Shown in pieces: positions 3,789 through 35,951 of a stretch of DNA of 35,951 bases (position 1 is its first letter; each line of letters starts with the position of its first letter). The notes under the pieces were generated by a model, which was not told the origin of the DNA, did no database searches, and worked only from the letters and a program-made list of their open reading frames with translations. Source of the stretch: Anaerolineae bacterium (GTDB taxonomy: Bacteria > Chloroflexota > Anaerolineae > SpSt-600); assembly GCA_034432815.1 (NCBI GenBank), contig DAOUBN010000053.1:1-35951 (forward strand). The letters are read 5' to 3'. Both the position numbers and the translations under genes were made by a program.

Positions 3789-4721
3789 TCAGGGTTCCAG
3801 CCAGGCGAATTCAAACAGCCTGGGGGCTTTAAACTCCCTTACAAACCCTTTTATCCTCTCCTCCGCCAGCTTCACATACTCTTCTTCTATCTCATACCCA
3901 ATATAATGCCTCCGCGTTTTTATGGCGGCTATGGCGGTTTGCCCACTCCCCATGAACGGGTCCAGAACCACCTCGCCTTCGTAAGTGTAAAGCTGTATGA
4001 GCCTGTAAGGCAGCTCCACGGGGAAAGGAGCCGGATGCCCGATTTCCTTTGCCGATACAGCCGGGAAAGTCCAGACGCTCCGGGTGAACTCCAGGAACTC
4101 CTCCTTTGAGATGGTGCTTCTCCTCCCGGCGGGGTTTTTCCTGGAGAACGTGCCCTTGGAGAAAACCAGGATATATTCGTGAACATCCCTCAGGGTTGGA
4201 TTCGTGGCTGAGCACCAGCTCCCCCAGGCGGTGGAGGGGCTCGCAGAGGAACCTTTGTTCCAGATTATTTCCCCCCGCATCAAAAAGCCCAGCTCCAGCA
4301 TATCCCTTATGATGAAGGCGTGGAGGGGTATGTAAGGCTTCCGGCCCAGGTTAGCGATGTTTATGCAGGCTCTGCCTCCCGGCACAAGAACCCTGTAGAC
4401 CTCTTTCCACACCCGCTTCAGAAACGCCAGGTATTCCTCCAGGGTGAGGTCCCGATCGTATTCCTTGCCCACATTGTAAGGAGGCGAGGTCACCATGAGG
4501 TGGACGCTGTTATCGGGCAGTTCCTCCATTTTTTCGGAGGATTTGCAGAAGATTTTGTCCAGAAATTCAGGGGGAATCGGGTTTTCCACCCACTTCAACT
4601 TTTGCTCCTTAGGCAGGCCTTCATAGAGTTTGCTTGTATAGAAAGGGGTGGAGTCGTGGTTTATCCTGCCAGGTGAGCCAAAAGAGCTTGTCCTGGTCCC
4701 TCTCCTCCTCACCTTGCCCAT
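3789..4721 (-). CDS. Beta-class N4-cytosine/N6-adenine DNA methyltransferase (SPPY type)
   Basis: Motif IV (TSPPYNVGKEYD) lies upstream of motif I (DPFMGSGQTAIAA), which is the beta-class order. The SPPY variant is typical of m4C enzymes. G+C is visibly lower than in flanking genes. Confidence 0.85.
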   Translation of the reverse strand: MGKVRRRGTRTSSFGSPGRINHDSTPFYTSKLYEGLPKEQKLKWVENPIPPEFLDKIFCKSSEKMEELPDNSVHLMVTSPPYNVGKEYDRDLTLEEYLAFLKRVWKEVYRVLVPGGRACINIANLGRKPYIPLHAFIIRDMLELGFLMRGEIIWNKGSSASPSTAWGSWCSATNPTLRDVHEYILVFSKGTFSRKNPAGRRSTISKEEFLEFTRSVWTFPAVSAKEIGHPAPFPVELPYRLIQLYTYEGEVVLDPFMGSGQTAIAAIKTRRHYIGYEIEEEYVKLAEERIKGFVREFKAPRLFEFAWLEP

Positions 4722-4725
4722 TTAA

Positions 4726-5358
4726 TTACTCCTCCTTCCAGCAATCTACCCATCTCTTGTAAGGGTTGTAAGCCATCTTCGTTTTGCGCCATTCTATAGT
4801 GATGCACTTTGTGCGCTTATCCGCAATTAAAGCGGAGATGGCCTCCTTGGAAATCTCCACGCCGCGCGGGTTAGTTCCAGGCTTTGGCAGCTTTATGTAT
4901 ACCTCCTTTCCGAGCTTTTCAAACACTTCTTGCTGAACTTCAACGGGGATGTAATAAAAACCACCCCTGCCTCCCCAGTTAATGTGAACCAGCAAAAAAT
5001 CGCATTTAGGGCAGTATTCCTCTTTAAATTTGCGCGCTTTTTGAGGGTCAACTGTCCAGACAAGCTTAACCCCGCCGATGCTTTTACCGGTTACGGTCTT
5101 AATGGAGATTGGCTTACCAAATAATTTTACATCTACTTCTGGCTCTGTGGGCGGAATTTCAGTTTGCACATTATCCTCACCGAATTTATAAATGAGCAAG
5201 GCTACCAAAATTTTCTCCCGGAGGGAGCCAGCTTCCATTCCCACTTTGCCGGCTCTTGAGCTTTCCATCTCTGCAAGCTGGAACAGATACGGCAATTTGC
5301 GTTCAATTTTCTCCACAGTTTGCGCATCATCAAATATCTCTTCCAATCTGCTCGCCAT
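4726..5358 (-). CDS. Putative type II restriction endonuclease, partner of the methyltransferase
   Basis: 210-aa ORF 4 nt upstream of the MTase on the same strand, in AT-rich sequence. Possible PD-(D/E)XK element (PTEPEVDVKLFG). I do not recognise a family. Start set at MASRLEEIF; the track's extension to 5490 overlaps the upstream gene. Confidence 0.45.
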   Translation of the reverse strand: MASRLEEIFDDAQTVEKIERKLPYLFQLAEMESSRAGKVGMEAGSLREKILVALLIYKFGEDNVQTEIPPTEPEVDVKLFGKPISIKTVTGKSIGGVKLVWTVDPQKARKFKEEYCPKCDFLLVHINWGGRGGFYYIPVEVQQEVFEKLGKEVYIKLPKPGTNPRGVEISKEAISALIADKRTKCITIEWRKTKMAYNPYKRWVDCWKEE

Positions 5359-5419
5359 TTTCTTTCTGCTCTGGAACGATTTGTAGATGGGGCGACCCCT
5401 GAGGGCCGCCCCATTGCTT

Positions 5420-8400
5420 TTATGTTCTCCGCATGAAGCGGGGGAGGATGGTGGCCCATTCGGGCAGGGGGACGCTGTCCCCGGGGCCAAGTTTGTCCAC
5501 AGGCTTCACCTCCCGCTGGCGGGCACGGCCCGCAAATATCCCTATCTGACTGCCTTCCCGGGCGTGGCGCCTGTCCACAAGAGCCATGCCGGTGAGGAAG
5601 CCTTCCGTGTCAATGGCGCAGGAGGTCACCACCCCGATGTAGTCCCCCCGCTGGTTGACTACAGGATCACCGGGCTCAGGCCTGGGAACGCCCTTGCGGT
5701 TCATCCGGAAGCGGATTATCTCCCGGGTCCGCCTGGCTTCTTTCTCTATGATGGCCTTCCGCCCGATGAAGTAGGGCTTGTGGAATTTGACGTAAGGGGC
5801 GAAACCCGCCTCTATCGGGTCTATGTTGAAGGGGCCTGCCAGTTCGTGGCCGTAAAGCGGCAGACCCGCTTCCGTCCGGGTTGAATCCCTGGCCCCGAGG
5901 CCCGCCGGCTTTATGCCGAAAGGCTTCCCCTTCTCCAGGAGCAGGTTCCACAGGCGAGGGGCATCGTCGGGGTGGACGAAGATCTCGTAGCCCCACTCCT
6001 CGCCGGTGTAACCCGTGCGGGCCACGATCACGTCCATCCCGTCCAGGGTCATTTCGGCCAGCTCTGTGCGGCGCATCCTCTTCAGGATCTCCCTGCCATC
6101 ACGATCGGCCAGGGACATGAGAATGTGGATTGAGGCCGGCCCCTGAAGGGCCATGTCCACCCTCATGTCTTTGCCGGAAGAGGGATCCTTGAGGTTCCGG
6201 AGGATGGCCTGCCCGTCCACTTCCTTAGCCGGGTTCTCCCTGTCCACGATAACCCGGCGGGAGTTAACGGCGTTCAGCCAGGCCCAGTCCTTCTCCTCAT
6301 TGGCGGCATTGACCACCATTATGTAGCGATCGCGGCGGATCCGGTAAATCATAACGTCGTCTATGACGTTGCCGTCAGGGTCAAGCAGGTAGGAGTAGAG
6401 GGACTGGCCGTCCTCAAGCCAGCGGACGTAGTTGGTGGTGACGAAGTCAAGGAAGCGGGTGGCATGTTCCCCGGAGATTTCAAATACTCCCATGTGGGCC
6501 ACGTCAAACAGGCCCGCGGCTTCCCGCACTGCCCTGTGCTCCTCAAGCACGCCTGTATACCAGACAGGCATTTCCCATCCGGCGAAGGGGATGAGTTTGG
6601 CCCCAAGCTTGCGGTGTTCTTCGTAGAGGGGGGTGTGCTTGAGAGGGCCTGGCTTTTCCTCCCAGCGGAACTCTTCCTTCTGGACGGGAGGCCTCTCTGA
6701 GGCCAGGAATTTTTCCCCCACAAAGTAGGGCTTGGAGAGGGCGAAGAGGTCCCTGTGGTTGCTCCGGTAGAGGGTGAGGGCATCGGGCCTTTCCCCGTCG
6801 TAAGAGGGCCAGTCGGCTCCGGAGCGCCAGGATCTGTAGGCCTGAGGCGAGGATGGCTGGAAGCCGTTCTGGCGCAGGATCCCCCAGAGCCGGGCGATGT
6901 TGTCGGGATGGGATATAAGCATCAGGAGTTCGCATCCGTTGCCGTAGTCCACCCTGGCGGCCAGCGTCTCCACTCCGTCCACCTGACCGGCCCAGAACCG
7001 GTTCAGGGGCATCTCGGGGAGCCAGGGCAAAAGGCCTTTGAGCCGGGAAACGGCTTCTTTCCCCGCCACTCCTATGGCCACTTTCCTCCAGGGTTCCTCC
7101 ATATCCTCCCACAGATCCTCCACGATGACAGGCCCTTCAACTTTGGCCAGGATGTCCTGGCGGTCAAAGATCGTGTAGCCATCGGACAGGGCCCGGAACC
7201 AGTCCTTAACCCTTTCGGTGTTTTCGGGGTTGGTGACAACCAGGTATTGCTGGCGGCCCCGGCTGTCGTCGGGAAGGCGGAGGATGGAGACATCGTCCAG
7301 GAGTTTGCCGTCGGCGTCCAGGAGGAAGGAGCGGGCTGCCATCCCCGGCCTGAGGTCGGCCAGGTTGGCGGTGTTGACCTGCTGGATGAAGGCTTCGGCC
7401 CTTGAGCCTCTGACCACAAGGAGGCCGAGGCTGGTCAGGTCAAAGAGGAAGGGCCCCTCGCCGGCGGGGATGGCTTTCTCCTCAAAGAGGGGCTTGCGGA
7501 CGGGCTCCTTTCCGGGCAGGAAGCAGTAGTGGGGGTAGCCGGTCCGGCAGGGGGGCGGGCAGATAGGGATGCGGTCAATCAGTTCGTCCACGCGGCAAGC
7601 AGCTTTCTTGAGGATCTCCAACTCTATCTTGCCCCTGGGCAATTCGTGGTCGCGGCCGTAATAGCGGAAGGGCTTGATGTTGACCAGGACTTCGGTCATG
7701 ATATCGGCTATCTCATCCATCTCTTCGGCGTCAAGGCCCCTCTGGGTCACCCACGGGGTCCCGAGGCGTATCCCGCTGGCCAGGGGGGTCATGGTGTCGC
7801 CGGGAATTGTGTTCTTGTTGACGATGATGCCGGCTATGTCCAGGAGTCTGGCGGCAATTTCCCCCTTCACCGGGTAGCCGGTATCGGTCCTGATTGACCT
7901 GAGGTCCAGGACCACCATGTGGGTATTGGTCCCGCCGTAGGCTACTTTTATCCCCCTCTTCTGGAAGGCCTCGGCGAGGGCTTTTGCGTTCTCCACGATT
8001 TTATACTGGATGCGCTTGAAGGTTTCGGTCTGGGCGATCTTGAAGGCCACGGCTATGGCGGCGAACTTGTTGACGTGGGGGCCTCCCTGGATTCCCGGGA
8101 AGACGGCGGCGTCAATGCGCTGGGCGAGCTCCTCGTCTGTGGTGATGATGACGGCTCCCCTGGGGCCGCATATGGTCTTGTGGGTGGTGAAGGTTATGAC
8201 GTCAGCGATGCCGATGGGGGAGGGGTGGGCGCCGGCCACCACAAGGCCTGCGGTGTGGGCGATATCGGCCATGAGGTAGGCTCCCACGGCATCGGCTATC
8301 TCCCGGAACTTCTCCCAGTCGGGTGCCCAGGAGTAGGAGGTGTAGCCAGCTATTATGAGGCGCGGCCTGTATTCCAGGGCCAGCTTCATAATCTGGTTGT

Positions 8401-8992
8401 AATTGAGGCGCTCGGTGGCGGGGTCAACTCCGTAGGAGACGACTTTGTAGCGGCGGCCGGAGATGTTGAACTCGCTTCCGTGGGTGAGGTGGCCCCCCTG
8501 GAAGAGGTCCATCCCCATTATGGTATCGCCGGGGTTGAGGAGAGCATCATATACGGCGATGTTGGCGGCGGCGCCGGAGAGGGGCTGGACGTTGACGAAG
8601 ATCCGCTCCGGGGGCACCCTTTCGTTGGCGAAGGCCTGGGCAATCCTGCGCTGGGCGAGGGTTTCCACAAAGTGGACGTATTCAACCCCTTTGTAGAACC
8701 GCCTGTCGCCGTAGCGCCGGTAGTGGCTGAGCTGGTGGGCGAAGTCCATCACAAGCTCCATCTCTTCCCTGGTCATCCTCAGGGGAGGGTAGCCTTCGGC
8801 GTAGATGTTGTTGAAGACGGAGCCCAGGGCTTTGAGGACGGGTTCGGGGGCTATGCTCTCGGAGGGTATCAGGATGATCTTGCGGGCCTGTTTTTCCTCC
8901 TCAAAGCGGATGAGGCGGTCTATCTCCGGGTCAATGGCCGAGAGTTCCCCTTCAAGGATCGCACGGTATTCCTGAGCGAGCTTCAGGTCCAT
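5420..8992 (-). CDS. Fusion protein: serine hydroxymethyltransferase + GcvT-like domain + aminomethyltransferase (GcvT)
   Basis: aa 1-~475 are SHMT-like (SESIAPEPVLKALGSVF.NIYAEGYP, GGHLTHGS, PLP-lysine motif TTHKTICGPRG). aa ~505-780 are a degenerate GcvT/YgfZ-like fold (LLVVRGSRAEAFIQ..LLDADGKLLDDV). aa ~785-1190 are a full GcvT (TPLYEEHRKLGAKLIPFAGWEMPVWY..EEHRAVREAAGLFDVAHMG..ARTGYTGEEWGYEIF..ARDSTRTEAGLPLYGHEL). RBS AAGGAGGGGG precedes the ATG. Confidence 0.85.
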   Translation of the reverse strand: MDLKLAQEYRAILEGELSAIDPEIDRLIRFEEEKQARKIILIPSESIAPEPVLKALGSVFNNIYAEGYPPLRMTREEMELVMDFAHQLSHYRRYGDRRFYKGVEYVHFVETLAQRRIAQAFANERVPPERIFVNVQPLSGAAANIAVYDALLNPGDTIMGMDLFQGGHLTHGSEFNISGRRYKVVSYGVDPATERLNYNQIMKLALEYRPRLIIAGYTSYSWAPDWEKFREIADAVGAYLMADIAHTAGLVVAGAHPSPIGIADVITFTTHKTICGPRGAVIITTDEELAQRIDAAVFPGIQGGPHVNKFAAIAVAFKIAQTETFKRIQYKIVENAKALAEAFQKRGIKVAYGGTNTHMVVLDLRSIRTDTGYPVKGEIAARLLDIAGIIVNKNTIPGDTMTPLASGIRLGTPWVTQRGLDAEEMDEIADIMTEVLVNIKPFRYYGRDHELPRGKIELEILKKAACRVDELIDRIPICPPPCRTGYPHYCFLPGKEPVRKPLFEEKAIPAGEGPFLFDLTSLGLLVVRGSRAEAFIQQVNTANLADLRPGMAARSFLLDADGKLLDDVSILRLPDDSRGRQQYLVVTNPENTERVKDWFRALSDGYTIFDRQDILAKVEGPVIVEDLWEDMEEPWRKVAIGVAGKEAVSRLKGLLPWLPEMPLNRFWAGQVDGVETLAARVDYGNGCELLMLISHPDNIARLWGILRQNGFQPSSPQAYRSWRSGADWPSYDGERPDALTLYRSNHRDLFALSKPYFVGEKFLASERPPVQKEEFRWEEKPGPLKHTPLYEEHRKLGAKLIPFAGWEMPVWYTGVLEEHRAVREAAGLFDVAHMGVFEISGEHATRFLDFVTTNYVRWLEDGQSLYSYLLDPDGNVIDDVMIYRIRRDRYIMVVNAANEEKDWAWLNAVNSRRVIVDRENPAKEVDGQAILRNLKDPSSGKDMRVDMALQGPASIHILMSLADRDGREILKRMRRTELAEMTLDGMDVIVARTGYTGEEWGYEIFVHPDDAPRLWNLLLEKGKPFGIKPAGLGARDSTRTEAGLPLYGHELAGPFNIDPIEAGFAPYVKFHKPYFIGRKAIIEKEARRTREIIRFRMNRKGVPRPEPGDPVVNQRGDYIGVVTSCAIDTEGFLTGMALVDRRHAREGSQIGIFAGRARQREVKPVDKLGPGDSVPLPEWATILPRFMRRT

Positions 8993-9004: not shown

Positions 9005-12000
9005 TTAGCGATTCATTTTACCAATTGCAGGCACTTCGGCGCTCTTTGGCTTTTTGCTTTCCAGGACTTTCTCTATTTCCGGGACGTTCTCTCCGAGGAG
9101 GCGGCGCAGTTCAAAGATTTCGTCGCGCAACATGGCCGCTTTTTCAAATTCCAGGTTCTTTGCGGCGATGTGCATCTGGTTCTCCAGTTCCTTTATCATG
9201 CGCCTGATTTCGTCCTTAGGGATTTCCTCACCCCGCACGATGTATTCGGCTTTGCGCTCCGCCACTTTCCGGACTCTGTCTGTGAGGTCGCGCACCTCTT
9301 TGACGATGCTGCGGGGCTCAATGCCGTGGCGCAGGTTGTATTCCATCTGGATGCGGCGGCGGCGCTCGGTCTCTTCTATGGCCCGGCGCATGGATTCGGT
9401 GATGGTGTCGGCATACATTATGGCGGTGCCTTCCACGTGCCTTGCCGCCCGCCCAATGGTCTGGATGAGGGCGGTCTCGGACCGCAGGAAGCCTTCTTTA
9501 TCGGCGTCCAGGATGGCCACCAGGGAGACTTCGGGCAGGTCCAGGCCCTCCCGCAGGAGGTTTATCCCCACCACCACGTCGTAGACGCCAAGGCGCAAGT
9601 TGCGCAGTATCTCCACCCGCTCAATGGTGTCAATTTCCGAGTGGAGGTAATGCACCTTGATGCCCATCTCGGCGAGATACTCGGCCAGGTCCTCGGCCAT
9701 CCTCTTGGTGAGGGTAGTGACCAGGGCCCGCTGCCCCTTTTCCACCCGCTTGCGGATTTCGGAGATGAGGTCATCAATCTGGCCCTTAGTGGGGCGCACC
9801 TCCACCTTCGGGTCCACGATTCCGGTGGGCCTTATAAGTTGCTCCACGACCTGTTCGCTCTTTTCCAGTTCGTAAGGGCCTGGGGTGGCGGAGGTGAAGA
9901 TGACCTGGCGCACCCGCTGCTCAAATTCCTCAAACTTGAGGGGCCTGTTGTCCAGGGCCGATGGCAGGCGGAAGCCGTAGTCCACCAGGGTTTTCTTGCG
10001 GGTGTAATCTCCGTGATACATCCCCCTGAGCTGGGGTATGGTCATGTGGGATTCGTCTATTATGACCAGGAAATCGTCGGGGAAGTAATCCAGGAGGGTC
10101 CAGGGGGGTTCTCCAGGCTTGCGGCGGGAGAGGTGGCGGGAGTAGTTTTCAATGCCGGGGCAGTAGCCTGTGGTCTTCAGGAGCTCCAGGTCGTAGCGGG
10201 TGCGCTGCTCAAGGCGCTGGGCCTCCAGGAGCTTCCCCTGAGCTCTGAGTTCCGCCAGCCTCTCCTCCAGTTCCTGCTCTATGTCCCTTATGGCCAGCTG
10301 GAGCTTTTCGTAAGGGGTGATGAAGTGCTTTGCCGGGTAAATGGCTACGGAGTCCAGCTCCCTGAGGATCTCGCCGGTGAGGGGGTCAAATTCGGTTATG
10401 CGCTCTATTTCATCGCCCCAGAATTCAATGCGGTAGGCAGTCTGGAGGTAGGCGGGCTGGACTTCCACGGTGTCTCCCCGGACCCGGAACCTCCCCCTTT
10501 CCAGGACGGTGTCGTTTCTCTCATACTGGATTTCCACCAGGTGGCGGAGGATTTTGTTGCGGCGGCGGACTTCGCCACGCCTGAGGGTTAGCACCACCTG
10601 GCCGTAGTCCTCGGGGCTTCCGAGGCCGTAGATGCAGGATACCGATGCCACGATGATGACGTCCCGGCGGGAGAAGAGGGCGGATGTAGCGGCCAGGCGC
10701 AGGCGGTCAATCTCCTCATTGATGTCGGCGTCCTTCTCTATGTAGAGGTCGTATTCGGGCAGGTAGGCTTCGGGCTGGTAGTAGTCGTAGTAGCTCACGA
10801 AGTATTCAACGGCATTGTGAGGGAAGAATTCCCGGAATTCGGCGTAGAGCTGAGCGGCCAGGGTCTTGTTGTGGGCGATGACGAGGGTTGGCTTCTGGAC
10901 CTGTTCAATGACTTTGGCCATGACGAAGGTGTTGTGCACAAAGAGCCCTCCCGCACCGGCTAAGAAGGTTTCATTCCCGGCCACGCTCAGGTCGTAAACG
11001 TAAGGCGAGGAAGCGCTTGCCGGCTCAACGCTGGCCACCGGCGACCAGCGGACCTTCAGGCGGCTCTGGAGTTTTCTCCAGCCTTCCCACCACTTTTCAT
11101 CTTCGTGATGCCTGGCCCCGGCTATTTCGCTTAAGGCTTCAAGAAGGCGCTGGAAGCTGGCGCGGGATGGGTTCCGGACCTGGCATTCAATCGCCGAGAC
11201 CAGCTTCTGGCTGACGCCTGCTGCTTGAGCCAGGAGTTTTTGGCTGACGCCCAGAGCCAGCCGCAGGTCCCGAAGGGAGCTCCCGACATCCGGGATTATG
11301 TCTACGCTGGAATTGGCCTTTCTGGCGATTTCCTGTTCCAGAGCCTCTGCTTTTCCGGCAAGGGAGAACCCGATGTGCTGATGGAAGGCGCGCAGGTTTT
11401 CCTGGCCAGATATGCTCACCTTCCAGTACCAGTCGCCCGGGTGATTGCCGTTGGTTGCCCGCTTGCGCACGCGCTGAATGCGAGCCCAGATGCCGAAGCG
11501 CAACAGCGCATAGGCCAGTTCGTAAGCCAGGCGCTGGCTGGCCGTGGTCACGGTCACGCATCCTTTATCACGCTCAACCGTCCCATCGCCATCAAAGTAG
11601 GCTTGCAGGAGTATGGCCAGCTGACGGTTGGACAGTTGAGGCCAGAAAGGAGGCAGGTGCTTCTCGCGAGCCACCCGGCCTGCCAGGCGGGCAAACAGCC
11701 GGGCAAGGGGAGCCGATGAGATCTGGAAATCGCTTGAGGGTCGGATTGTGAAGCGGAGCCCCAGTTCTGTCAGGCTTTCCGCGATGTGTTCCCTCAGTTG
11801 AGGGGAGCGGTTGGCCAGGATGAGGTGATTCCCTTTGGCCGTCGCCGTCCCTTCGGCCAGGTAACAGCCAAGCAGCCTCAGGAAAGCATCAGTAAGGCGC
11901 AATTCCAGGGGCAACCCTGAGCGCTCTAACCTGCCGGCCACATGAGCCTGCTCCGGGTGCCAGGTTCCCTGAAAGCTCTCCGTTGCCTCTGGACAGGAGT

Positions 12001-12670
12001 AATGAGGGGCGAGGAGGGCGGTGAATTCCTGCCCGCCCCTCGCCGCGATGTATTCGGCAATTTGTTGACGGGCTTGGATGAACAGGCCTGCGTCCTGCAG
12101 GTAATCCAGCAGGTTCAGGTCTGGAAGGTCCTGCGCAGGGGCAGGAATGCTGAGGGGGATGGGTATGTAATCCCCGGGGCGAATTTCGGTGGTAGGAAGC
12201 AAGTGCATCTGTCCGTCCCGGAGCACCCAGAGGTTGTGGTCTCCGGTGATGACCGCGCTTCTGCCGCATTTCAGGGTCACCCGGAACATCCGCTCGGGGG
12301 CGCGATGCCGGATGAAAGCCATAATGGGTTTCGGTTCCACCTCGCCTGTGCGGGCGTTGAAGCTCAAAGTCCAGTATGAGCCGGGTTCAGGGCGCGCCAC
12401 CACCGTGTCGCCGTAGTGTTCCACTCTGGAGGCTCTTTTTATCGCAGCTTCAATAAGTTCCCCGATAGGGACAAGCTCAAAGCGGAAGCCATCGCTCTCC
12501 TTCCGGGCGATGAAGACGGGCTCGGCGCCGTCCAGGCTCTTGCCGGTGCCCGTGGCTCCCAGCAGGGTCTGGTAGCGGTATCCTTTGCGGATACCTTCTA
12601 CCAGTTTTTCTATGGCCTGGGGCTGGTCGCCTGTGGGTTTGAAGGGGGAGACGAGTTTAAACCTTTCCAT
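9005..12670 (-). CDS. uvrB: Excinuclease ABC subunit B (UvrB), interrupted by an intein
   Basis: [38 protein letters not shown]|...|[25 protein letters not shown], helicase motifs and a C-terminal UVR motif ([17 protein letters not shown]). Start set at ATG 12670. The track's 56-codon extension to 12838 is translated repeat DNA. Confidence 0.9.
10931..12538 (-). mobile_element. Intein (536 aa, Ser1...His-Asn / Thr+1) with LAGLIDADG homing-endonuclease and HTH regions, inserted in the UvrB Walker A motif
   Basis: It begins SLDGAEPVF directly after GATGTGK and ends GGLFVHN directly before TFVMAKV. Block B is [18 protein letters not shown] motifs are [11 protein letters not shown] and [15 protein letters not shown]-like HTH is [25 protein letters not shown]. 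Block F is [12 protein letters not shown]. Length is 1608 nt, in frame. Confidence 0.85.
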
Positions 12671-13235
12671 TTTTGTTTCCCCACCCTCGTGGGCTCGGGG
12701 TTCGCCATGGTTCAGGATCCCACTCGTGGGCAAGTTGCGGGAGTTGCCTTCTCGCTCCTTTGATTGGTTTTTCTGGGGGCACATCCCCCATACCCCCTGG
12801 CATGGGGCTTTGCACCCTGCACCCCCGATTTTCCCCACCCTCGTTTGCTCTGGGTTTGCCCACGTTCAGAGTCCCACTCGTGGGCGGGTTGCGGGAGTTG
12901 CCCCCTCGCCCCTTGATTTGTTTTCCTGGGGGGACACCCCCCAGACCCCCCGGGAGGGGGCTCGCCCCCTCCAACCCCTTGAGGTTGTTTTCCCGGGGGC
13001 ACATCCCCCATACCCCCAGCATGGGGGCTTCGCCCCCCCTGCACCCCTCTTTCCCCACCCTCGTTTGCTCAGGGTTCGCTGGGCTTCAGGGGCCCCCTCG
13101 TAGCCAGGTTGCAGGAGTTTCCCGCTCGCCCCTTGATTTGTTTTCCTGGGAGGACACCCCCCAGACCCCCGGGAGGGGGCTCGCCCCCTCCACCCCCATT
13201 TTGGGGACACCCCCCAGGCCCCCCGCCAGGGGGTT
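12671..13235. repeat. Mosaic A/B interspersed-repeat cluster 2 (three same-orientation A1+B units)
   Basis: A1 copies at 12679-12758, 12833-12912 and 13053-13132, each followed by 1-2 B modules (e.g. 12928-12978). Confidence 0.85.
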
Positions 13236-13256: not shown

Positions 13257-16253
13257 TTATACCTCCACGCGGGAGAGGTCAGCAATGCCTCTGGGGAGGA
13301 GGGCTATGCGCTGGAGGAGGGCGAGTCTGTTCTCCCTTATCTCCCTGTCCTCCACCATGACAAAGACTTCGTAAAAGAACCTGTCTATCGGCTCTACAAG
13401 GGGCATGAGCAGGGCGAAGAGGCCGTCAATGTCGTTGACCTTTCGCCTCTTCTCCTCCGCCTCCAGATATGCCCTGTAGAGGTCGTGTTCGGCGGGTTCG
13501 GTGAAGAGTTCCGGGCGGAGGGGCAGGAGCTCAGGCACATCTTTCACTATCCTGGCCGGCCGGATGAAGGCAGTCATGACGGCGGGGAACTCGGGTTTCT
13601 GCGCCCAGCGGGCCAGGTCCTGCAGGGTGACCCAGGCTAAATAAGGGTTATCGGCCCGCTCGGCCAGGACGGCTTCTATGAGGTCGGGCCGGTAGCCTCT
13701 CTCCTGGAAGAGGCCCCGCATCCTCGCCACGATGAATTCCAGGGCCTCCTGCAGGATTTCCCCGGTGATGGCCAGCGGGAGAAGGCGAGCCGCTTCGGCC
13801 AGGGCCTCCCGGAGGGACAGGCTTATGCCTTTGTCCACCAGGATCTGGACAAGGCCCAGGGCCGTCCGGCGGAGCCCGTAAGGGTCGGCTGAGCCGGTGG
13901 GAGCAAGCCCCGCTCCGAGAAGACCCACCAGGCTGTCCAGTCTGTCGGCAATCCCCACCACTGTGCCGGGGATGGTGCGGGGAAGGGAATCGCCGGCGAA
14001 GCGAGGCAGGTAGTGCTCAAAGATGGCTTCGGCCACCTCGGGATCTTCCCCCCAGTGGAGGGCGTAGTGGCGGCCCATGGTCCCCTGCAGGCTCGTTAGT
14101 TCTACAACCATCTGGGTGGCAAGGTCGGCCTTGCACAGGCGGGCGACTCTGGAGGCCTTTTGGCTTTCCTCTTCGGAGAGGCCAAGGCGCCGGCAGAGCC
14201 ACGGCACGAGTCTTTCCAGCCTGCTCACTTTGTCCAGCATTGACCCGAGCCTTTCCTGGAAGGTGAGCCCCCCGAGCTTCGGCAGGTATTCCTCAAGGGG
14301 CTTTTTGAGGTCTGTTGCGATGAAGTAATCGGCATCGGAGAAGCGGGCCCGCAGGACTTCTTCGTTCCCCCTGCGGACTATGTCCAGGTGGCGGGTGTCC
14401 CCGTTGCGGACGGCGATGAAGTAGGGGAGGAGTTTGCCTTCCTGGGAGAGGACAGGGAAGTAGCGCTGGTGTTTCTTCATCACGGTTATCAGGACTTCCT
14501 GGGGGAGGCGGAGGAAGGCGGGGTCAAAGGACCCCCGGAGGGCCGTCGGCTTTTCCACGAGATTGGTTACCTCTTCCAGCAGAGCCGGGTCATCCGGGAT
14601 CAGACCTCCCACTTCCGAGGCCAGTTCGGCTGCCTGCCTCCTTATTTCCTCCCGGCGTTTCTCCAGGTCCACCACGATCCCGGCCTCTTCCATGGCTCTG
14701 AAGTAGTCTTCAGCCCTGGGGATTTCAATGGCAGGGGAGCCTTCGGGCCTGAGGCCCCTGGTGGTGCGGCCGGAACGGACCCCGGCGTATTCAAAGCTCA
14801 CCACTCTGGCCCCGAAGAGGGCCACGATCCAGCGGATCGGCCTTGAGAACCTCACGCCGCTTTCGTTCCAGCGCATTGTGAGGGGGAAGCGCAAGGATGA
14901 GATGAGCCTGGGGAAGAGTTCGGCCAGGACGGAGGGGGTTGCTTCCCCTTTTTTCCGGACCACGGCCACCACATAGCGCTTGTCCTCGTATTCCCTTATC
15001 TGGAGATCTTCCACTCTCACGCCCTGCTTTTCGGCGAAGGCAATGGCGGCTCTGGTGGGTTTTCCCTCCGGGTCAAAGGCTGCCGAAGCCGGAGGCCCTT
15101 TGACCACCATTTCCTCTTCTTCCTGGCAGGAAGCGAGGTTTCTGATGTAGAGGACAAGGCGGCGGGGGGTTCCGGCCACGTAGAGGCTTTCGTAGCGGAG
15201 GCGAGCCTGGGCGAGGAGATCCGGGGCAAGTTCCCGGATCTGCTCCACTGCCAAGCTCAGGTCGCGGGCTGGCAGCTCTTCGGTGCCGATTTCCAGGAGG
15301 GCATCGGCGTAGGGGGGCAGGTCTTCTGTTCCCTCCGGCTCAGGGATCGCTTCTGCCTTCTGCCGGGTTGGGGCTCCTTTCAGCCAGGGGAAGCCCGCTT
15401 CCTGGCGCTGGTTCAGGTAGAGCTGGGCGGCCTGGCGGGCCAGATCCCGCATCCGGGCGAAGTAGGAGGCCCTCTCAGCCACCCCTATCGTCCCCCGGGA
15501 GTCCAGGAGGTTGAAGGTATGGGAGCAGCGTAGGATGTAATCGTGGGCCGGGACTACCAGGCCCCTTTCCAGGCAGCGTTTAGCTTCGGCCTCGTATTCG
15601 TTGTAGAGGCGCCGGAGCCTTTCCACATCCGCTTCTTCAAAGTTGTAGATGCAGTGCTCCACTTCCGAGCGGAGGAGGATATCGCCGTAGGAGTGGATCC
15701 CGTCCCAGTCAATTTCCCATACGCTCCTGACTTGCTGGAGGAACATGACAATGCGTTCAAGGCCGTAGGTTATCTCCACGGCCACGGGGTTCAGGTCAAT
15801 TCCTCCCGCCTGCTGGAAGTAGGTGAACTGGGTTATTTCCAGGCCGTCAAGCCAGACTTCCCACCCGAGTCCCCAGGCTCCGAGGGCCGGGGATTCCCAG
15901 TTGTCCTCCACGAAGCGGATATCGTGCTGGCGGGGGTCTATGCCCAGAACCTGAAGGCTCTCCAGGTAAATTTCCTGAGGGTTGCCGGGGTCGGGCTTGA
16001 GGATGACCTGGAACTGGAAGTGGAGTTGCATCCGGTTGGGGTTCTCCCCGTAGCGTCCATCGTCGGGGCGGTAGGATGGCTCCACGTAGGCCACGTTCCA
16101 GGGTTCGGGCCCGAGGACCCGCAGGAAAGTAGCCGGGTTCATGGTCCCGGCCCCAACTTTTTCGCTGTAAGGCTGCCATATCAGGCATCCCCTGTCGGCC
16201 CAGAACCTCTGCAGGCGGAGGATAACTTCCTGAAATGAAAGCGCTTTGCCCAT
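13257..16253 (-). CDS. glyQS: Glycine--tRNA ligase, fused alpha (GlyQ) and beta (GlyS) chains
   Basis: The N-terminus ([78 protein letters not shown]) closely matches GlyQ. The remaining ~700 aa are GlyS-like. Single 998-aa ORF. Confidence 0.9.
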
Positions 16254-31358: not shown

Positions 31359-32684
31359 CTACCTCCTTTCGGCCCAGTAAGCCCTCTGCGCCCACATGCT
31401 TGACGGCGCTGTCTCCAGGATGCGGGTGAAGAGTTCCCGCGCTCTGTCCTTTTCCCCTGAGATGGAGTAGACAAGCCCCAGGTAATACAGGGCCCGGAGG
31501 GAATTGGGGGAAAGCTCCAGCGCCCTCTTGAGGCAGGATTCGGCCAGCTCTACCCGCCCGGCGTAGTAGTGGGCGATCCCCGCCAGCTCCCACCCTCCAG
31601 GCTCATCGGGGTATAGCTCCAGGACTTTCCGCACATTCTCCAGAGCCTCCTCGTCGGACCTCATCAGGACGGCGATCTGGAGTTCGGCCAGGGAGAGGCG
31701 GAAGGCGAGGTCCTCCGGAGCCAGTTCAACGGCGCGCCTGAGCCTTTCCTCGGCCTCCCTGTAGTTTCCCCTGCGGATTTCCACCTCGGCCAGGGCGGTG
31801 TGAAAGTATGGGTTTGAGGGTTCAAGGGATAAGGCGTAGAGGAGCTCGCGCCTGGCCCCCTCCAGATCGCCCCGGGATAGAAGGTGCAATCCCAGGAAGT
31901 AATGCCCCGGCGGGTAAGTATAATCCAGTTGCAGGGATTTGACAAAAGCCCGGGAGGGGTCCTGGCCGAGTCCGGAGAGGGCATGGCCCAGGAATGCCCA
32001 GCCCTCGGGGGAGTCGGGGTAGATAGTCAGGGCTTCCTCCAGAACGGCCTTCGCTGCCCCGTATTCCCCCAGAGCGATGTAGAATTTGCCCAGCTCTTTT
32101 AGGCGGAAGAACTCATCAGGGAAGGAGAGGACAGCTGCCAGGCCTTCAATTCCGGGGCAGTTTTCCGAGAGGCGCGCCGCCTCAGCTGGCCTGGAGGGGG
32201 CGATGGAAAGGGCCAGGAGGCATCGCTCGCCGGCTTTTTCAAAGTGGCGGGATGCTTCCTCAAGCTTTCCCATCCTGAAGAAAGCCACCCCCATCCTGCG
32301 GTGCAGGGCCGGGTTGTGCGGGCTCATTTCCAGGGCTCTGCGCCAGTGCGCCGCCGCCTCCTCCACCCTTCCCTGGGCGAAGAGGGCATCTCCGAGCCCG
32401 GCAAGAGCCCTGGATCCTCCCCCCATCTCCGCGGCAGAGGAGAAGGCTTTCTGGGCATAATCCTGGAGGCCGAGGCGCAGGTATATTTCCCCCTCCAGCA
32501 TGAGGGGGAGGGGGTTAACCGGATCCAGTTCCCTTGCCCTTTCCAGCGCTTCAAGAGCTTCGGAAGGCTTTCCGGGGCAGGAGACCAGCCGGATGAAAGC
32601 CTGCTCCCGGTAACCCGAAGCCAGGATCAGGAGGAAGAGGGCAAGGGGGATAACCCTTAAGGAAAACCCGGCCTTCCGTCCCAT
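31359..32684 (-). CDS. TPR-repeat protein with N-terminal membrane anchor/signal
   Basis: N-terminal hydrophobic segment (VIPLALFLLILASG), then repeated ~34-aa A/L/Y-rich units (e.g. GNYREAEERLRRAVELAPED, ALYYLGLVY). Confidence 0.75.
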   Translation of the reverse strand: MGRKAGFSLRVIPLALFLLILASGYREQAFIRLVSCPGKPSEALEALERARELDPVNPLPLMLEGEIYLRLGLQDYAQKAFSSAAEMGGGSRALAGLGDALFAQGRVEEAAAHWRRALEMSPHNPALHRRMGVAFFRMGKLEEASRHFEKAGERCLLALSIAPSRPAEAARLSENCPGIEGLAAVLSFPDEFFRLKELGKFYIALGEYGAAKAVLEEALTIYPDSPEGWAFLGHALSGLGQDPSRAFVKSLQLDYTYPPGHYFLGLHLLSRGDLEGARRELLYALSLEPSNPYFHTALAEVEIRRGNYREAEERLRRAVELAPEDLAFRLSLAELQIAVLMRSDEEALENVRKVLELYPDEPGGWELAGIAHYYAGRVELAESCLKRALELSPNSLRALYYLGLVYSISGEKDRARELFTRILETAPSSMWAQRAYWAERR

Positions 32685-32744
32685 GGCTCAACCCGTAAGA
32701 CAGATTTTCCCTTAAGCGAGAGCCCCTGCGTATCCTGGCTCCTT

Positions 32745-32840
32745 GAGCAACAGGGGGTGCAAGGGGCCCCAGTCCCCCTGCCAGGGGGCTTTGCCCCCGG
32801 ACCCCCTTTTGGGGACACCTCCCACAGCCCCCGTTGGGAA
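32745..32840. repeat. Mosaic repeat cluster 6 (B modules only)
   Basis: GGGGTGCAAGGGGCCCCAGTCCCCCTGCCAGGGGGCTTTGCCCCCGGACCCCCTTTTGGGGACACCTCCCACAGCCCCC, i.e. one reverse B-like and one forward B-like module. Confidence 0.6.
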
Positions 32841-32854
32841 TTTACTGCACAGGT

Positions 32855-32883
32855 TTGCAAATTCTCCGGAACATGTTATATAT
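32855..32883 (+). promoter_or_regulatory. Candidate promoter of the RHS/Tc-like gene
   Basis: TTGCAA (32855-32860), a 16-17-nt spacer, then TATATAT (32877-32883), in the only AT-rich stretch of this intergenic region. Confidence 0.35.
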
Positions 32884-32914
32884 GTAAAAGCCCTTTGGCA
32901 AAAGGATTTTTGCG

Positions 32915-35900
32915 ATGACATGGCGTTTTTTGAACCTTTTAGTGATAGCGAGCATGCTTTTCTCCCACTTAGCCAACCCCATCGGGCACCCTTTCCAGAG
33001 CCCTCTACCCACGCCCACTCCAGTTCTCTCCCCCACCTTTTCAAGCCCCCTGCCTGCCCCTCAGGAGCAGGTCCCATCCGGCCCTGAGGTGCCTCCTCCC
33101 CAACCTTTGCCTCCACCCGAGACCGTTCCCGTCCAGCCCGGGCAGACCATTGCCCTGGCTCAGGGCCGCGTTACCTTGACCATACCTGAAAAGTCCCCTC
33201 TCCGCAAGGTCACCCTCAGAGTGACTCAACTCAGGCCACTGGCCGGGCATGAAGCAGGCCTGGCTTTCGCCTTTGACCTGACCGCCTCTGACGCGGGAGG
33301 TAAAACCCTCAGCCTTCTTCCCGCCCCCATAACGGTCAAACTCAACCTGAATGGCCTGGTAAACTGGGCCTCCCGCCCTGACTGGCTCCGCCCCTGGGTT
33401 GGATTCTGGGATGAAAAGGGCCAGAACTGGCAGACCATAGAACCCATCTTCGTGGACGAGCAAGCCGGAGTAATAGCCTTCACCACCGATCACCTCTCCA
33501 CCTTCGGGGCCGGCACCCAGGGAGTTACAGTGAGTGGATGGATCCTCAACTTCAACGACACCAGGACAGACCTCTTTTCCGGCGCCTTAATCTGGGAGTA
33601 TCCTTTTGACCTGCCCCCAGGACCCGGGGGGATCAGGCCGGACCTGCGCCTCTCCTACAATAGCCGCAGGCTGGATGGGATCCTCCCCTGGGCCCAGTCC
33701 GATGGCGTGGGCTGGGGCTGGAGCCTGGACATAGCCGACATCCTCTGGCGCAATGTCCACCGCTGCAAGGGGAGCGGAGAATCCGATTATTACCTCTGCT
33801 GGGATAATGTCCCGCTGCTGGTGCTGAACGGGGAAGCCCTGAAACTTATCCCGGAGACCTCCCTCCCGAACGACATCCAGTATAACGGACCAGGATCCAC
33901 AACCTACAGCTTTCACACCGAAGACGAGAGGTTCTGGCGCATCCTCTGGAAACCGGGGTCTGAGAACGGCTACTGGGAAGTAACCCTCAAAGACGGCACG
34001 CGCTACCTTCTTGGAACCACCCCCGATAGCCGGCAGGTGTTGAGGGGCACCGCCCATGCCACCGTCCGCTGGCGGGGGAAAGGGATAATCTACCCCACGG
34101 GCCTCACCGTCACCTTCACCTACACTGAACAGACCCTGGCCCAGCAGTGCGAGCTCTTCAAGGCGGCAAACTTGATTAAAAGCACCGACACCTGCCACGG
34201 AGACCATTCAGACTCCGAAAGGCCAAGTTCCCTCACCCAGATTGAATCCCCGGGAACGAGGGTGAAGGTCCTCTGGGCCCGCCGCTGGAACGGCAACGGG
34301 CCCAACGACGGCTTCGGCCCCGAAGCCTACCGCGGGGATTTCGCCTCCGCCGGGATGGCCGCCATCTTCTGGCAGACCGACGCCGTCCAGAAAGTCGTGG
34401 TGGAGCGCCGGCGAGGGGATGGGACCTGGCAGCCTGTGCGGGAGGTCCGCTTCACCTACGGGACTTACACCCCGATGGATGAGGGGAACAAACGACTGCG
34501 GACCCTCACCGCCCTGCAGGAATGGGCCCCGGAGGGAAGCGCCTGGAAAGCCCTGCCCCCCTTCACCTTTGAATACACTGGATATCCCAATAAGGACTGG
34601 TGCAACACCTACTTAATCAAGACCTGCTCCGAGTGGGACCAGGCCCAGTTCTACTACCCCCGCCTGACCCGCATCAATAACGGATATGGAGGGGTGATTG
34701 AGATCAATTACGCCACCCCCGATGGGGGCTACTGGCAGGCGAAGAACTACCGGGTGGCCCAGCGGAAGGTCACCGACGGGCTGGGAGGAGGATGGAGAGA
34801 AGTTTACGCTTATTCCGACAATCCTGATGGACGATGTTACCTCTCCAGTGCGGATGCGGAAAGGTGCAAGTGGTATGATGAATTCCCGGACATAGGGGGA
34901 GGGGTCAGGGCCACCGGCGGCCTCTTCCTGGGCTACTGGGAGGTCACCGTGACCTTCCAGGACCTCGCCGGCGCCGCCCAGAGGGTGGAATGGACCCGCT
35001 TTGCCCTCCCCGGGGGGCCCACCAACGACCCCTGGCCCGCCCGGGGCCGCCCACGGGAGCGCCAGGTCCGGGATCCCGGCGGAGCTGTCCTCCAGGCCAT
35101 CGCCTACACATATGGCTTTTCCCCCACCGTAGACACCGCAGGCAAGGCGAACTTCGTCTTCCTCCAGCGCCAGGATATAACCACTGACGGCCGCACGGCC
35201 CGAACGGAATACCGCTACGACGCCTACGGGAACGTCACCGCCGTCTTCGAGCACGGCTTCCTTGACGTCTCGGGGGACGAGCGCTCCACCCACCGGGGCT
35301 ATGCTTCCAACCCCACCGCCTGGATCGTGGACAAAGTCGCCTGGGAGAACGTTTACGACGGCATCACCGAAAACACCGGGGGAGAAGCGCTGCGCACCCA
35401 GACCCGCTTCTACTACGACGGGGCTTCTTCCTTCACCACCCCACCGGTGAAGGGATTGCTGACCCGGGTGGACCGGGGCAAAGAAGGCTGGGGCTGGGGC
35501 ACCGAGCAGGCCGCCTACGACGCCTACGGCAACCCCACCGTCATCACCGACGCCCGGGGCTTCGCCACAACCTTCTCCTACGACCCCACGGGAGTCTACC
35601 GGCTCTCCGAGCGCAACGCATTGGGGCATATCACCCGCTATGAATACTACGGCATCAACGAGAGCGCCCCCGGTAAGGGCCGGGGGCCGGTGGGAGCCCT
35701 GAAGCGGGTTGTGGACCCCAACGGAGCGGCCACCGCCTACACCTACGACCCCTTCGGCCGGCTGCGGACGGTGGTGCGCCCCGGAGACTCCTGGGACTAC
35801 CCCACTGAAGAATGGCTGTATTACGATGGAGTGGACCACTCCTTCACCGACCGCTGGCCCCTGATGGTCGTGCGCCTGGTACGGGGGACGCCGGGGGCAG

Positions 35901-35951
35901 CCTGGTGCTCGGGTGGACTGGCAACCTGGGAACGGCTCTACTACGACGGCC
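32915..35951 (+). CDS. Secreted SpvB/TcdB-N-domain + RHS/YD-repeat protein (Tc-toxin B/C-like or polymorphic-toxin shell), 3'-partial
   Basis: Absent from the ORF track because no stop occurs before the window end. I translated it by hand in the frame with codon starts = 2 mod 3. It starts MTWRFLNLLVIASMLFSHLANP (signal-like), followed by a Pro-rich linker. Next is LIWEYPFDLPPGPGGIRPDLRLSYNSRRLDG..GVGWGWSLD, the SpvB/TcdB N-terminal signature. YD repeats follow (YRYDAYGNVTAV, YDAYGNPTVITDARGF..FSYDPTG, YTYDPFGRLRTVV). At least 1012 codons are open. Confidence 0.85.
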   Translation, partial: MTWRFLNLLVIASMLFSHLANPIGHPFQSPLPTPTPVLSPTFSSPLPAPQEQVPSGPEVPPPQPLPPPETVPVQPGQTIALAQGRVTLTIPEKSPLRKVTLRVTQLRPLAGHEAGLAFAFDLTASDAGGKTLSLLPAPITVKLNLNGLVNWASRPDWLRPWVGFWDEKGQNWQTIEPIFVDEQAGVIAFTTDHLSTFGAGTQGVTVSGWILNFNDTRTDLFSGALIWEYPFDLPPGPGGIRPDLRLSYNSRRLDGILPWAQSDGVGWGWSLDIADILWRNVHRCKGSGESDYYLCWDNVPLLVLNGEALKLIPETSLPNDIQYNGPGSTTYSFHTEDERFWRILWKPGSENGYWEVTLKDGTRYLLGTTPDSRQVLRGTAHATVRWRGKGIIYPTGLTVTFTYTEQTLAQQCELFKAANLIKSTDTCHGDHSDSERPSSLTQIESPGTRVKVLWARRWNGNGPNDGFGPEAYRGDFASAGMAAIFWQTDAVQKVVVERRRGDGTWQPVREVRFTYGTYTPMDEGNKRLRTLTALQEWAPEGSAWKALPPFTFEYTGYPNKDWCNTYLIKTCSEWDQAQFYYPRLTRINNGYGGVIEINYATPDGGYWQAKNYRVAQRKVTDGLGGGWREVYAYSDNPDGRCYLSSADAERCKWYDEFPDIGGGVRATGGLFLGYWEVTVTFQDLAGAAQRVEWTRFALPGGPTNDPWPARGRPRERQVRDPGGAVLQAIAYTYGFSPTVDTAGKANFVFLQRQDITTDGRTARTEYRYDAYGNVTAVFEHGFLDVSGDERSTHRGYASNPTAWIVDKVAWENVYDGITENTGGEALRTQTRFYYDGASSFTTPPVKGLLTRVDRGKEGWGWGTEQAAYDAYGNPTVITDARGFATTFSYDPTGVYRLSERNALGHITRYEYYGINESAPGKGRGPVGALKRVVDPNGAATAYTYDPFGRLRTVVRPGDSWDYPTEEWLYYDGVDHSFTDRWPLMVVRLVRGTPGAAWCSGGLATWERLYYDG

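Follow-up and report, generated by a model that had tools for sequence, protein, structure and literature searches.

Introduction

The closest described counterparts of the gene reported here are the toxins defined by Zhang, de Souza, Anantharaman, Iyer and Aravind in 2012, which combine a signal peptide and, optionally, a ZU5 autopeptidase at the N-terminus with SpvB, RHS repeats and a variable toxin, for which Chloroflexi are among the listed phyla, and in which ZU5 was proposed to release the toxin at the cell surface (PMC3482391). This 'TcdB/TcaC-type' class is known from comparative genomics alone, and the literature that we searched contained neither an experimental test of a ZU5/GAIN-SpvB-RHS head nor a paper linking Thermoflexus with Rhs. 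Here we analyze such a gene at the end of a contig assigned to Anaerolineae bacterium (DAOUBN010000053.1, GenBank assembly GCA_034432815.1). The whole stretch that was analyzed, 35,951 nucleotides, is referred to as the window, and the gene occupies positions 32915-35951 of its + strand. With a probability of roughly 80%, we interpret this region as coding for the N-terminal half, with 1012 of ~2000 residues, of an RHS/YD-repeat polymorphic toxin exported through Sec by a Thermoflexales (Chloroflexota) host living in a hot-spring-type community, and we place the protein in the signal peptide-ZU5-SpvB-RHS class of Zhang et al.

Results

The contig ends within a large RHS gene

Translation of 32915-35951 (+) yielded a frame that begins at ATG 32915 and continues for 1012 stop-free codons to the very last base, in agreement with a preliminary description made from the sequence letters. 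Because an in-frame TAA lies at 32885 and the next start codon is ATG 32915, the latter is the first possible start, and it is preceded by AAGGA (32902-32906) 8 nt to its 5' side. The G+C content at third codon positions (GC3) is 0.775 in this frame, compared to 0.768 and 0.738 in the contig's genes for glycyl-tRNA synthetase and UvrB, respectively. In the antisense open reading frame (ORF) at 34613..35839 (-), the excess instead falls on the first codon position (GC1 0.81), and no Pfam match was obtained for it or for the antisense ORFs at 33587-34207 and 33041-33493. Given the housekeeping-like GC3 of the + frame and the lack of Pfam matches on the other strand, the antisense ORFs were rejected as genes and are regarded as shadows. 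The ORF list shows minus-strand ORFs alone in this part of the window because ORFs that leave the source are omitted, and the earlier remark that the gene was missing from that list, which showed antisense shadows in its place, was thus correct.

The frame had also been said to run off the window. It is indeed open to the edge, which is the end of the contig (35951) and not merely that of the window, since the window is the entire contig. The suggested downstream extension gave no continuation: exact 50-mer searches with the last bases of the window returned nothing from the genome or metagenome contig collections. Proteins identical to those of the window were seen on Logan contigs from run DRR082460, probably the source sample, that measure 1-2 kb (1.2-1.6 kb for two neighbors of the gene); exact look-ups of the TPR and B12-binding neighbor proteins gave no record. 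In the orthologous locus of T. hugenholtzii (L002, CP076326), the 3' RHS part recurs in three downstream repeats with 92%, 80% and 80% identity, the first of which begins ~570 bp beyond the position matching the window end, and it is likely because of rhs repeats of this kind that the short-read assembly broke here.

Successive parts of the encoded half-protein

From its N-terminus onward, the protein consists of a signal-like peptide, a Pro-rich linker, a ZU5/GAIN-fold domain with an H-L-S site, an SpvB-like region and RHS repeats. The signal-peptide-like N-terminus (32915..32980, +; residues 1-22) comprises MTWR, the hydrophobic stretch FLNLLVIASMLF and SHLANP, with a Kyte-Doolittle 12-mer maximum of 2.41 at residues 5-16, an Arg just before it, a hydrophobic core of ~12 residues and no lipobox Cys. 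A basic plus hydrophobic pattern (best 12-residue window 2.1-3.0) was likewise found in six of eight orthologue N-termini, and in the remaining two it lies further inside over-long ORFs. The signal-like character noted earlier is shared with these orthologues, and by hydropathy the N-terminus looks like a putative Sec signal. The linker that follows (32981..33118, +; residues 23-68) includes a conserved FQSPLP motif and was rightly called Pro-rich, with 38% proline over residues 23-75. AlphaFold2 (AF2) gave residues 1-62 a predicted local distance difference test score (pLDDT) below 50. The linker sequence has diverged from that of the orthologues, and DNA similarity with related loci begins at ~33254.

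Downstream of the ZU5/GAIN-like domain (33119..33520, +; see below), the SpvB-like N-terminal shell region (33578..34135, +; residues 222-407) matched Pfam PF03534 with 28.4 bits, above the curated cut-off of 22, and the same family reached up to 53 bits in orthologues. The structure of the SpvB N-domain (6p0x) was recovered both by the family profile (E = 8.8e-7) and by Foldseek (E = 4.4e-7). The signature YPFDLPPG…RRLDG occupies 33599-33679 and GWGWSLD 33710-33730, and all motif positions quoted in the preliminary description were found to be exact, and its assignment of SpvB was supported. The canonical YD/RHS repeats that it had recognized begin at 35210 and are cut by the contig end (35210..35951, +; residues 766-1012). 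Here, both Pfam RHS_repeat (PF05593; 52.5 bits against a cut-off of 22, in two stretches, the best at residues 927-957) and NCBIfam TIGR01643 YD_repeat (48.9 bits against 15.8) scored above their curated cut-offs. The first YD motif, YRYDAYGNVTAV, spans 35210-35245, and two further ones lie at 35516-35563 and 35738-35776. Between these two well-marked regions, a middle region (34136..35209, +; residues 408-765) is predicted to form long beta-hairpins, seen in the AF2 model as long paired strands of low confidence. It is conserved in relatives, and many matches among representative proteins cover residues 65-780. Searched alone, residues 408-780 gave RHS_repeat below threshold and no other Pfam family. 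The middle region probably continues the shell.

A ZU5/GAIN-like domain with an H-L-S site precedes SpvB

The beta-rich domain that the preliminary description had left unnamed is present at residues 69-202, and its identification as ZU5/GAIN-like is new here. Modeled with AF2 from a 38-sequence alignment, it folded into 11 strands with a pLDDT of 90.2 and a predicted TM-score (pTM) of 0.80. In a Foldseek search of the PDB with this model, the top 13 matches were all ankyrin ZU5 (4d8o, 3ud1) or GAIN domains (BAI3 4dlo, CD97, CELSR1, BAI2), with a probability of 1.00 and TMq values of 0.45-0.55. Profile searches pointed to the same superfamily: 5 of the 38 family members matched Pfam ZU5 (best 1.5e-5), 3 of 38 matched the Nup98 S59 autopeptidase, and the family profile gave weak matches in the PDB to ankyrin ZU5 and Nup145.

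The domain, which ends 20 residues upstream of the SpvB match, contains a conserved motif, D-H-[FL]-[ST]-x-[FYW]-G-x-G. Across 53 diverse relatives the His is kept in 50, Phe or Leu in 51 and Ser or Thr in 51, and the H-[LF]-[ST] site is kept also in two distant relatives that are 28-30% identical (alignment A1). In the window protein, the site reads His193-Leu194-Ser195 (33491..33499, +). His193 ends strand 10, the penultimate strand of the model, Leu-Ser falls in the turn that leads to the last strand, and autoproteolysis would be expected between Leu and Ser. The HL|S sequence is identical to some GPS sites. The beta-sandwich fold and the H-[LF]-[ST] triad before the last strand are shared with the ZU5 domains of ankyrin, PIDD, UNC5 and NLRP1 (FIIND) and with the GAIN/GPS region of adhesion G-protein-coupled receptors (GPCRs), whereas the present domain is bacterial, would be extracytoplasmic, lies ahead of a toxin cocoon and has neither GAIN subdomain A nor Cys pairs. 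We conclude from model and motif that residues 69-202 form a ZU5/GAIN-superfamily domain that is predicted to be autoproteolytic. When residues 1-780 were compared to 1.84 billion representative proteins, 1295 clusters were retrieved at E ≤ 1e-3, many of them 2000-4000 residues long. Because many of these clusters align over residues 65-380, the N-domain and SpvB appear to travel together in large proteins.

Orthologues supply the missing half

A protein search retrieved nine close relatives (63-76% identical) and two distant ones at ~25%. Among the six close relatives with a name or title given by the source, the only organism labels were Chloroflexi and Thermoflexus, and four loci from the genome collection belong to Thermoflexus or to Thermoflexales metagenome-assembled genomes, except for one in an unclassified bin; the earlier guess of a thermophile fits these affiliations. 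Intact orthologues are 59-76% identical to the window protein, with ORFs of 2041 codons in locus L003 and 2078 codons in L005, and a third, in L004, is open throughout its 2129 codons but contains a scaffold gap. Given these lengths of 2041-2129 codons, the window holds about half of the gene.

The match between orthologues goes on for ~1000 residues past the window end, with 7-10 repeat stretches in each. An RHS core, YDYRARFYDPxLGRFLQPD…NNPLxYxDxxGH, was found in all orthologues with a complete 3' end (L001, L002, L003 and L005). Beyond it follow tips of 196-237 residues that are mutually unrelated, those of L002 and L003 excepted. The tip of L005 is a CDI_toxin_EC869_like DNase domain (PF21111, 51 bits), and the gene downstream of it encodes 152 residues. 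The tips of L002 and L003 are homologous, and each is followed by a homologous downstream gene encoding 309 or 310 residues. These two tips share 'GLEVHHLIE[KR]RF', and their 309/310-residue partners (L003 15628-16560, L002 15836-16765) carry paired Cys motifs. Neither the tips nor the partner proteins belong to a Pfam family, and each tip and partner may possibly constitute an undescribed toxin/immunity pair. In L001, the tip of relative P0002 (5320-6063) has 237 residues and ends in …YRHWGG…GSPWFSP…GKVAPQ…GGGEQIYLP; by eye, it resembles TNT/NADase-type toxins, with no Pfam match. Most orthologue tips and putative immunity proteins indeed have no Pfam family. Orphan core-plus-tip cassettes and 3' RHS repeats are carried by both L001 and L002.

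Judged by their sequences, the orthologous loci have the classic anatomy of a polymorphic toxin/immunity system, and the RHS core, variable tip and immunity gene that the preliminary description had expected beyond the window are seen in the intact Thermoflexales orthologues, this copy ending at 35951. By extension, the missing half of the window gene would complete a large beta-cocoon of ~1,600 residues and end in an RHS aspartyl-autoprotease core and a strain-variable tip of ~200-240 residues enclosed in the cocoon, and a cognate immunity gene would follow. Outside the gene, the window shares no DNA similarity with the five related loci, and nothing upstream is shared. The neighbors of the T. 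hugenholtzii orthologue are his genes, and as the neighborhood is not conserved, the genomic context gives no functional clue.

Comparison to related toxins and shells

Like the 'TcdB/TcaC-type' toxins (PMC3482391), the Thermoflexales protein has a signal-like peptide, a ZU5 fold before SpvB and central RHS repeats, joined in its orthologues by a polymorphic tip and an immunity gene. The class differs in having an integrin-like beta-propeller after SpvB, whereas no FG-GAP, VCBS or propeller family was detected here.

Another likeness is to the cocoon of Tc BC (YenB-YenC2 4igl, TcdB2-TccC3 6h6e). Both open with an SpvB-type shell start and enclose a large RHS cocoon, the global fold overlap is best with these structures (TMq 0.31-0.35), and the orthologues keep the C-terminal aspartyl-protease core. 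In contrast to Tc BC, the Thermoflexales protein is a single polypeptide, has no detected TcB mid or propeller domains and no nearby TcA gene, adds a signal peptide, Pro-linker and ZU5 head, would bear antibacterial CDI-type tips, and comes from a hot-spring Chloroflexota host. Foldseek with the low-confidence AF2 model of the whole half-protein returned only Rhs, Tc BC and teneurin shells (E = 1e-10 to 1e-14), with YenBC 4igl as the best overlap (E = 7e-15). By phmmer, the window protein itself gave only a chance-level teneurin match in the PDB, and a family profile was needed.

For the full-length orthologue, the closest solved relatives are type VI secretion system (T6SS) Rhs effectors, namely RhsA (7q97), RhsP (8h8a), Tse5 (8cp6) and Tse15 (8uy4), with E = 1.6e-25 to 1e-12. 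The RHS core motif and the encapsulated tip are common to both, whereas here a putative Sec-type signal and a larger shell starting with SpvB are found in place of PAAR, VgrG-binding or 'clade' domains. A T6SS Rhs effector was accordingly rejected, there being no PAAR or related Pfam match and no T6SS genes on the contig. A toxin of the type VII secretion system (T7SS) was rejected as well, since neither its N-terminal markers nor, on the contig, T7SS genes were found.

WapA toxins are described as using cell-wall-binding repeats and have neither ZU5 nor SpvB; in the Thermoflexales protein, a Pro-rich stalk and ZU5 are found instead. What Bacillus subtilis WapA/WapI and Streptococcus suis WapA (PMC12704120) would have in common with it is an N-terminal Sec signal instead of PAAR/VgrG, an RHS shell exposed at the surface, a C-terminal toxin that is polymorphic and followed by an immunity gene, and a part in interbacterial competition. 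Together with such WapA-type Rhs toxins, bacterial teneurin-like proteins, in which TTR, FN-plug and NHL domains stand before the YD shell (PMC13018210), are functional analogues with other N-terminal modules. Membership in the teneurin-like group itself was rejected, as NHL and TTR Pfam matches are absent from the window protein and its orthologues and the teneurin-like proteins match the YD/RHS-core part only.

Weighing of alternative explanations

The preliminary description had seen here the architecture of Tc-toxin B/C shells and RHS polymorphic toxins alike. The latter reading fits the protein better than a Tc B/C subunit, no TcdB mid or propeller domains and no TcA-sized gene having been found here or in the orthologous loci. 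A fused TcB-TcC (BC) subunit that docks on a TcA pentamer encoded elsewhere and injects its tip into eukaryotic cells would account for the SpvB domain that opens the shell, as in TcB, for the top TM-scores of Tc BC structures (4igl, 6l7i and 6h6e, TMq 0.31-0.35 vs 0.1-0.24 for others) and for a predicted shell of ~1,600 residues, a size closer to that of BC cocoons than of T6SS Rhs. However, the fold model behind these scores is of low confidence, and in sequence comparisons T6SS Rhs proteins come nearest to the full-length orthologue (1.6e-25), YenC2 reaching only 2.9e-6. The TcdB_toxin_midN check proposed earlier was negative, as were those for midC, FG-GAP and the VCBS propeller, in the window protein and in the full-length orthologues at E ≤ 0.1, a result that is profile-based and stands beside a low-confidence model. 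TcA proteins measure ~2,300-2,500 residues, and no gene of that size was found on the 36-kb contig, where the suggested T6SS or T7SS context was also not found, or within 3-10 kb on each side of the orthologues where contigs allow. Orthologue tips and loci moreover look antibacterial, with a CDI DNase, immunity-like partners and orphan cassettes, and we judge a BC subunit to be very unlikely. Even less credence is given to a surface adhesin or teneurin-like YD-shell protein serving adhesion or signaling rather than toxin delivery, which we regard as highly improbable. Teneurins and bacterial teneurin-like proteins do appear among the fold and sequence matches, and adhesion receptors are the typical setting of a ZU5/GAIN domain, but FN-plug, NHL, TTR and Ig-like adhesion domains all went undetected, the orthologues retain a catalytic RHS core, polymorphic tips and partner genes, and the teneurin-like proteins of bacteria are toxins in their own right (PMC13018210).

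Somewhat less improbable, yet still unlikely, is an RHS remnant that is decaying or no longer functional, or a chimera produced by assembly at the contig end, with no active toxin. The contig does break within the gene, an apparent frameshift at …PDGFTG|PTGGPFLGY… divides the T. hugenholtzii orthologue (L002 10001-22109) into 702 + 1282 residues, and relatives P0001 and P0003 have out-of-frame-looking tails, P0003 also with an internal deletion. Against decay stand the 1012 uninterrupted codons with housekeeping-like GC3, the intact HLS, SpvB and YD signatures, the two intact orthologues (L003, L005) and the open, if gapped, L004, and contig breaks in rhs genes are to be expected from internal or orphan repeats such as those in L002. 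Several observations count against the interpretation as a Sec-exported polymorphic toxin. With several relatives disrupted, this copy could be a pseudogene further downstream, and since the data stop at 35951, they contain neither its C-terminal half and RHS core nor a toxin tip and immunity gene. Hydropathy was the sole criterion for the signal peptide, whose short hydrophobic region fits a cleavable signal, with an uncleaved anchor also possible. For the head, the E-values of the ZU5/GAIN fold matches are modest (5e-4 to 1e-2), the Pfam ZU5 model gives the window copy no score and no Pfam match was obtained for this domain even at E ≤ 10. Whereas Zhang et al. describe a CxH active-site motif for the ZU5 superfamily, the domain has H-[FL]-[ST] and no Cys. 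The AF2 model of the whole protein is poor (pLDDT 56), and export, cleavage and toxicity are inferences from sequence and models.

The upstream region and other genes of the contig

The RHS gene is separated by an intergenic region (32685..32914) from a divergent TPR gene (31359-32684, -). Of the AT-rich, promoter-like patch that had been reported there (32855-32883), the AT-richness was confirmed (GC 0.31 vs 0.60 overall), and a + strand promoter was not supported: a consensus scan found no sigma-70 site on that strand. Two sigma-70-like sites on the minus strand (32861-32901), against 0.2 expected by chance, are placed to drive the TPR gene. Terminator, tRNA and Rfam searches gave no match.

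Elsewhere, the contig carries housekeeping genes, and neither a T6SS nor a T7SS gene was found on it. The UvrB gene (9005-12838, -; 1277 residues) has an intein between its helicase motifs, with Intein_splicing, LAGLIDADG_3 homing endonuclease and HTH_3 matches, and the alpha and beta subunits of glycyl-tRNA synthetase are fused in a protein of 998 residues (13257-16253, -). Another fusion (5420-8992, -; 1190 residues) joins serine hydroxymethyltransferase (residues 94-431) to a glycine-cleavage T-protein domain, in which GCV_T matched residues 789-1064 and a second, unlocated stretch. The cluster in which it falls has 27 members at ≥90% identity, is seen on contigs as long as 1.5 Mb and bears the JGI name 'glycine cleavage system T protein'. 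The restriction-modification genes at 3789-5490 (-) pair a ThaI-family endonuclease (332.7 bits) with an N6/N4 DNA methylase, and since GC falls to its lowest value on the contig there (0.524 at 4001-5000 vs ~0.60), horizontal acquisition is suggested.

Discussion

If the Thermoflexales protein is the polymorphic toxin that we take it to be, it would be exported by Sec and held at the cell surface by its Pro-rich stalk, and its ZU5-like domain would cut itself between Leu194 and Ser195, whereupon the loaded cocoon would either be freed or stay held non-covalently. The RHS core would sever the tip, which would then poison neighboring bacteria that have no matching immunity protein, and no TcA-like injector would take part. 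A more specific and rather doubtful version borrows the non-covalent tether of GAIN domains: after HL|S cleavage, the last strand (residues 196-202) would hold a cocoon of Tc-BC size on the Pro-rich, envelope-anchored stalk until contact with a neighbor or shear pulled it off for delivery. Were this the case, a monoderm thermophile would possess a stand-alone contact-dependent toxin independent of both TcA and T6SS, and the tethered mechanism of adhesion GPCRs would have a counterpart in prokaryotes.

The payoff from this particular contig is limited, as it includes neither toxin tip nor immunity gene. The locus nonetheless adds an RHS polymorphic toxin to the little-studied thermophilic lineage Thermoflexales, and suggests that contact- or proximity-dependent bacterial antagonism operates in hot-spring communities too. 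The fusion of a ZU5/GAIN domain with H-[FL]-[ST] to SpvB-RHS recurs in >1000 protein clusters, and a thermostable member would be a convenient subject for studying how Sec-exported RHS cocoons are released and act without a TcA injector or T6SS, with the ZU5/GAIN-type head and its HLS site supplying a testable release step.

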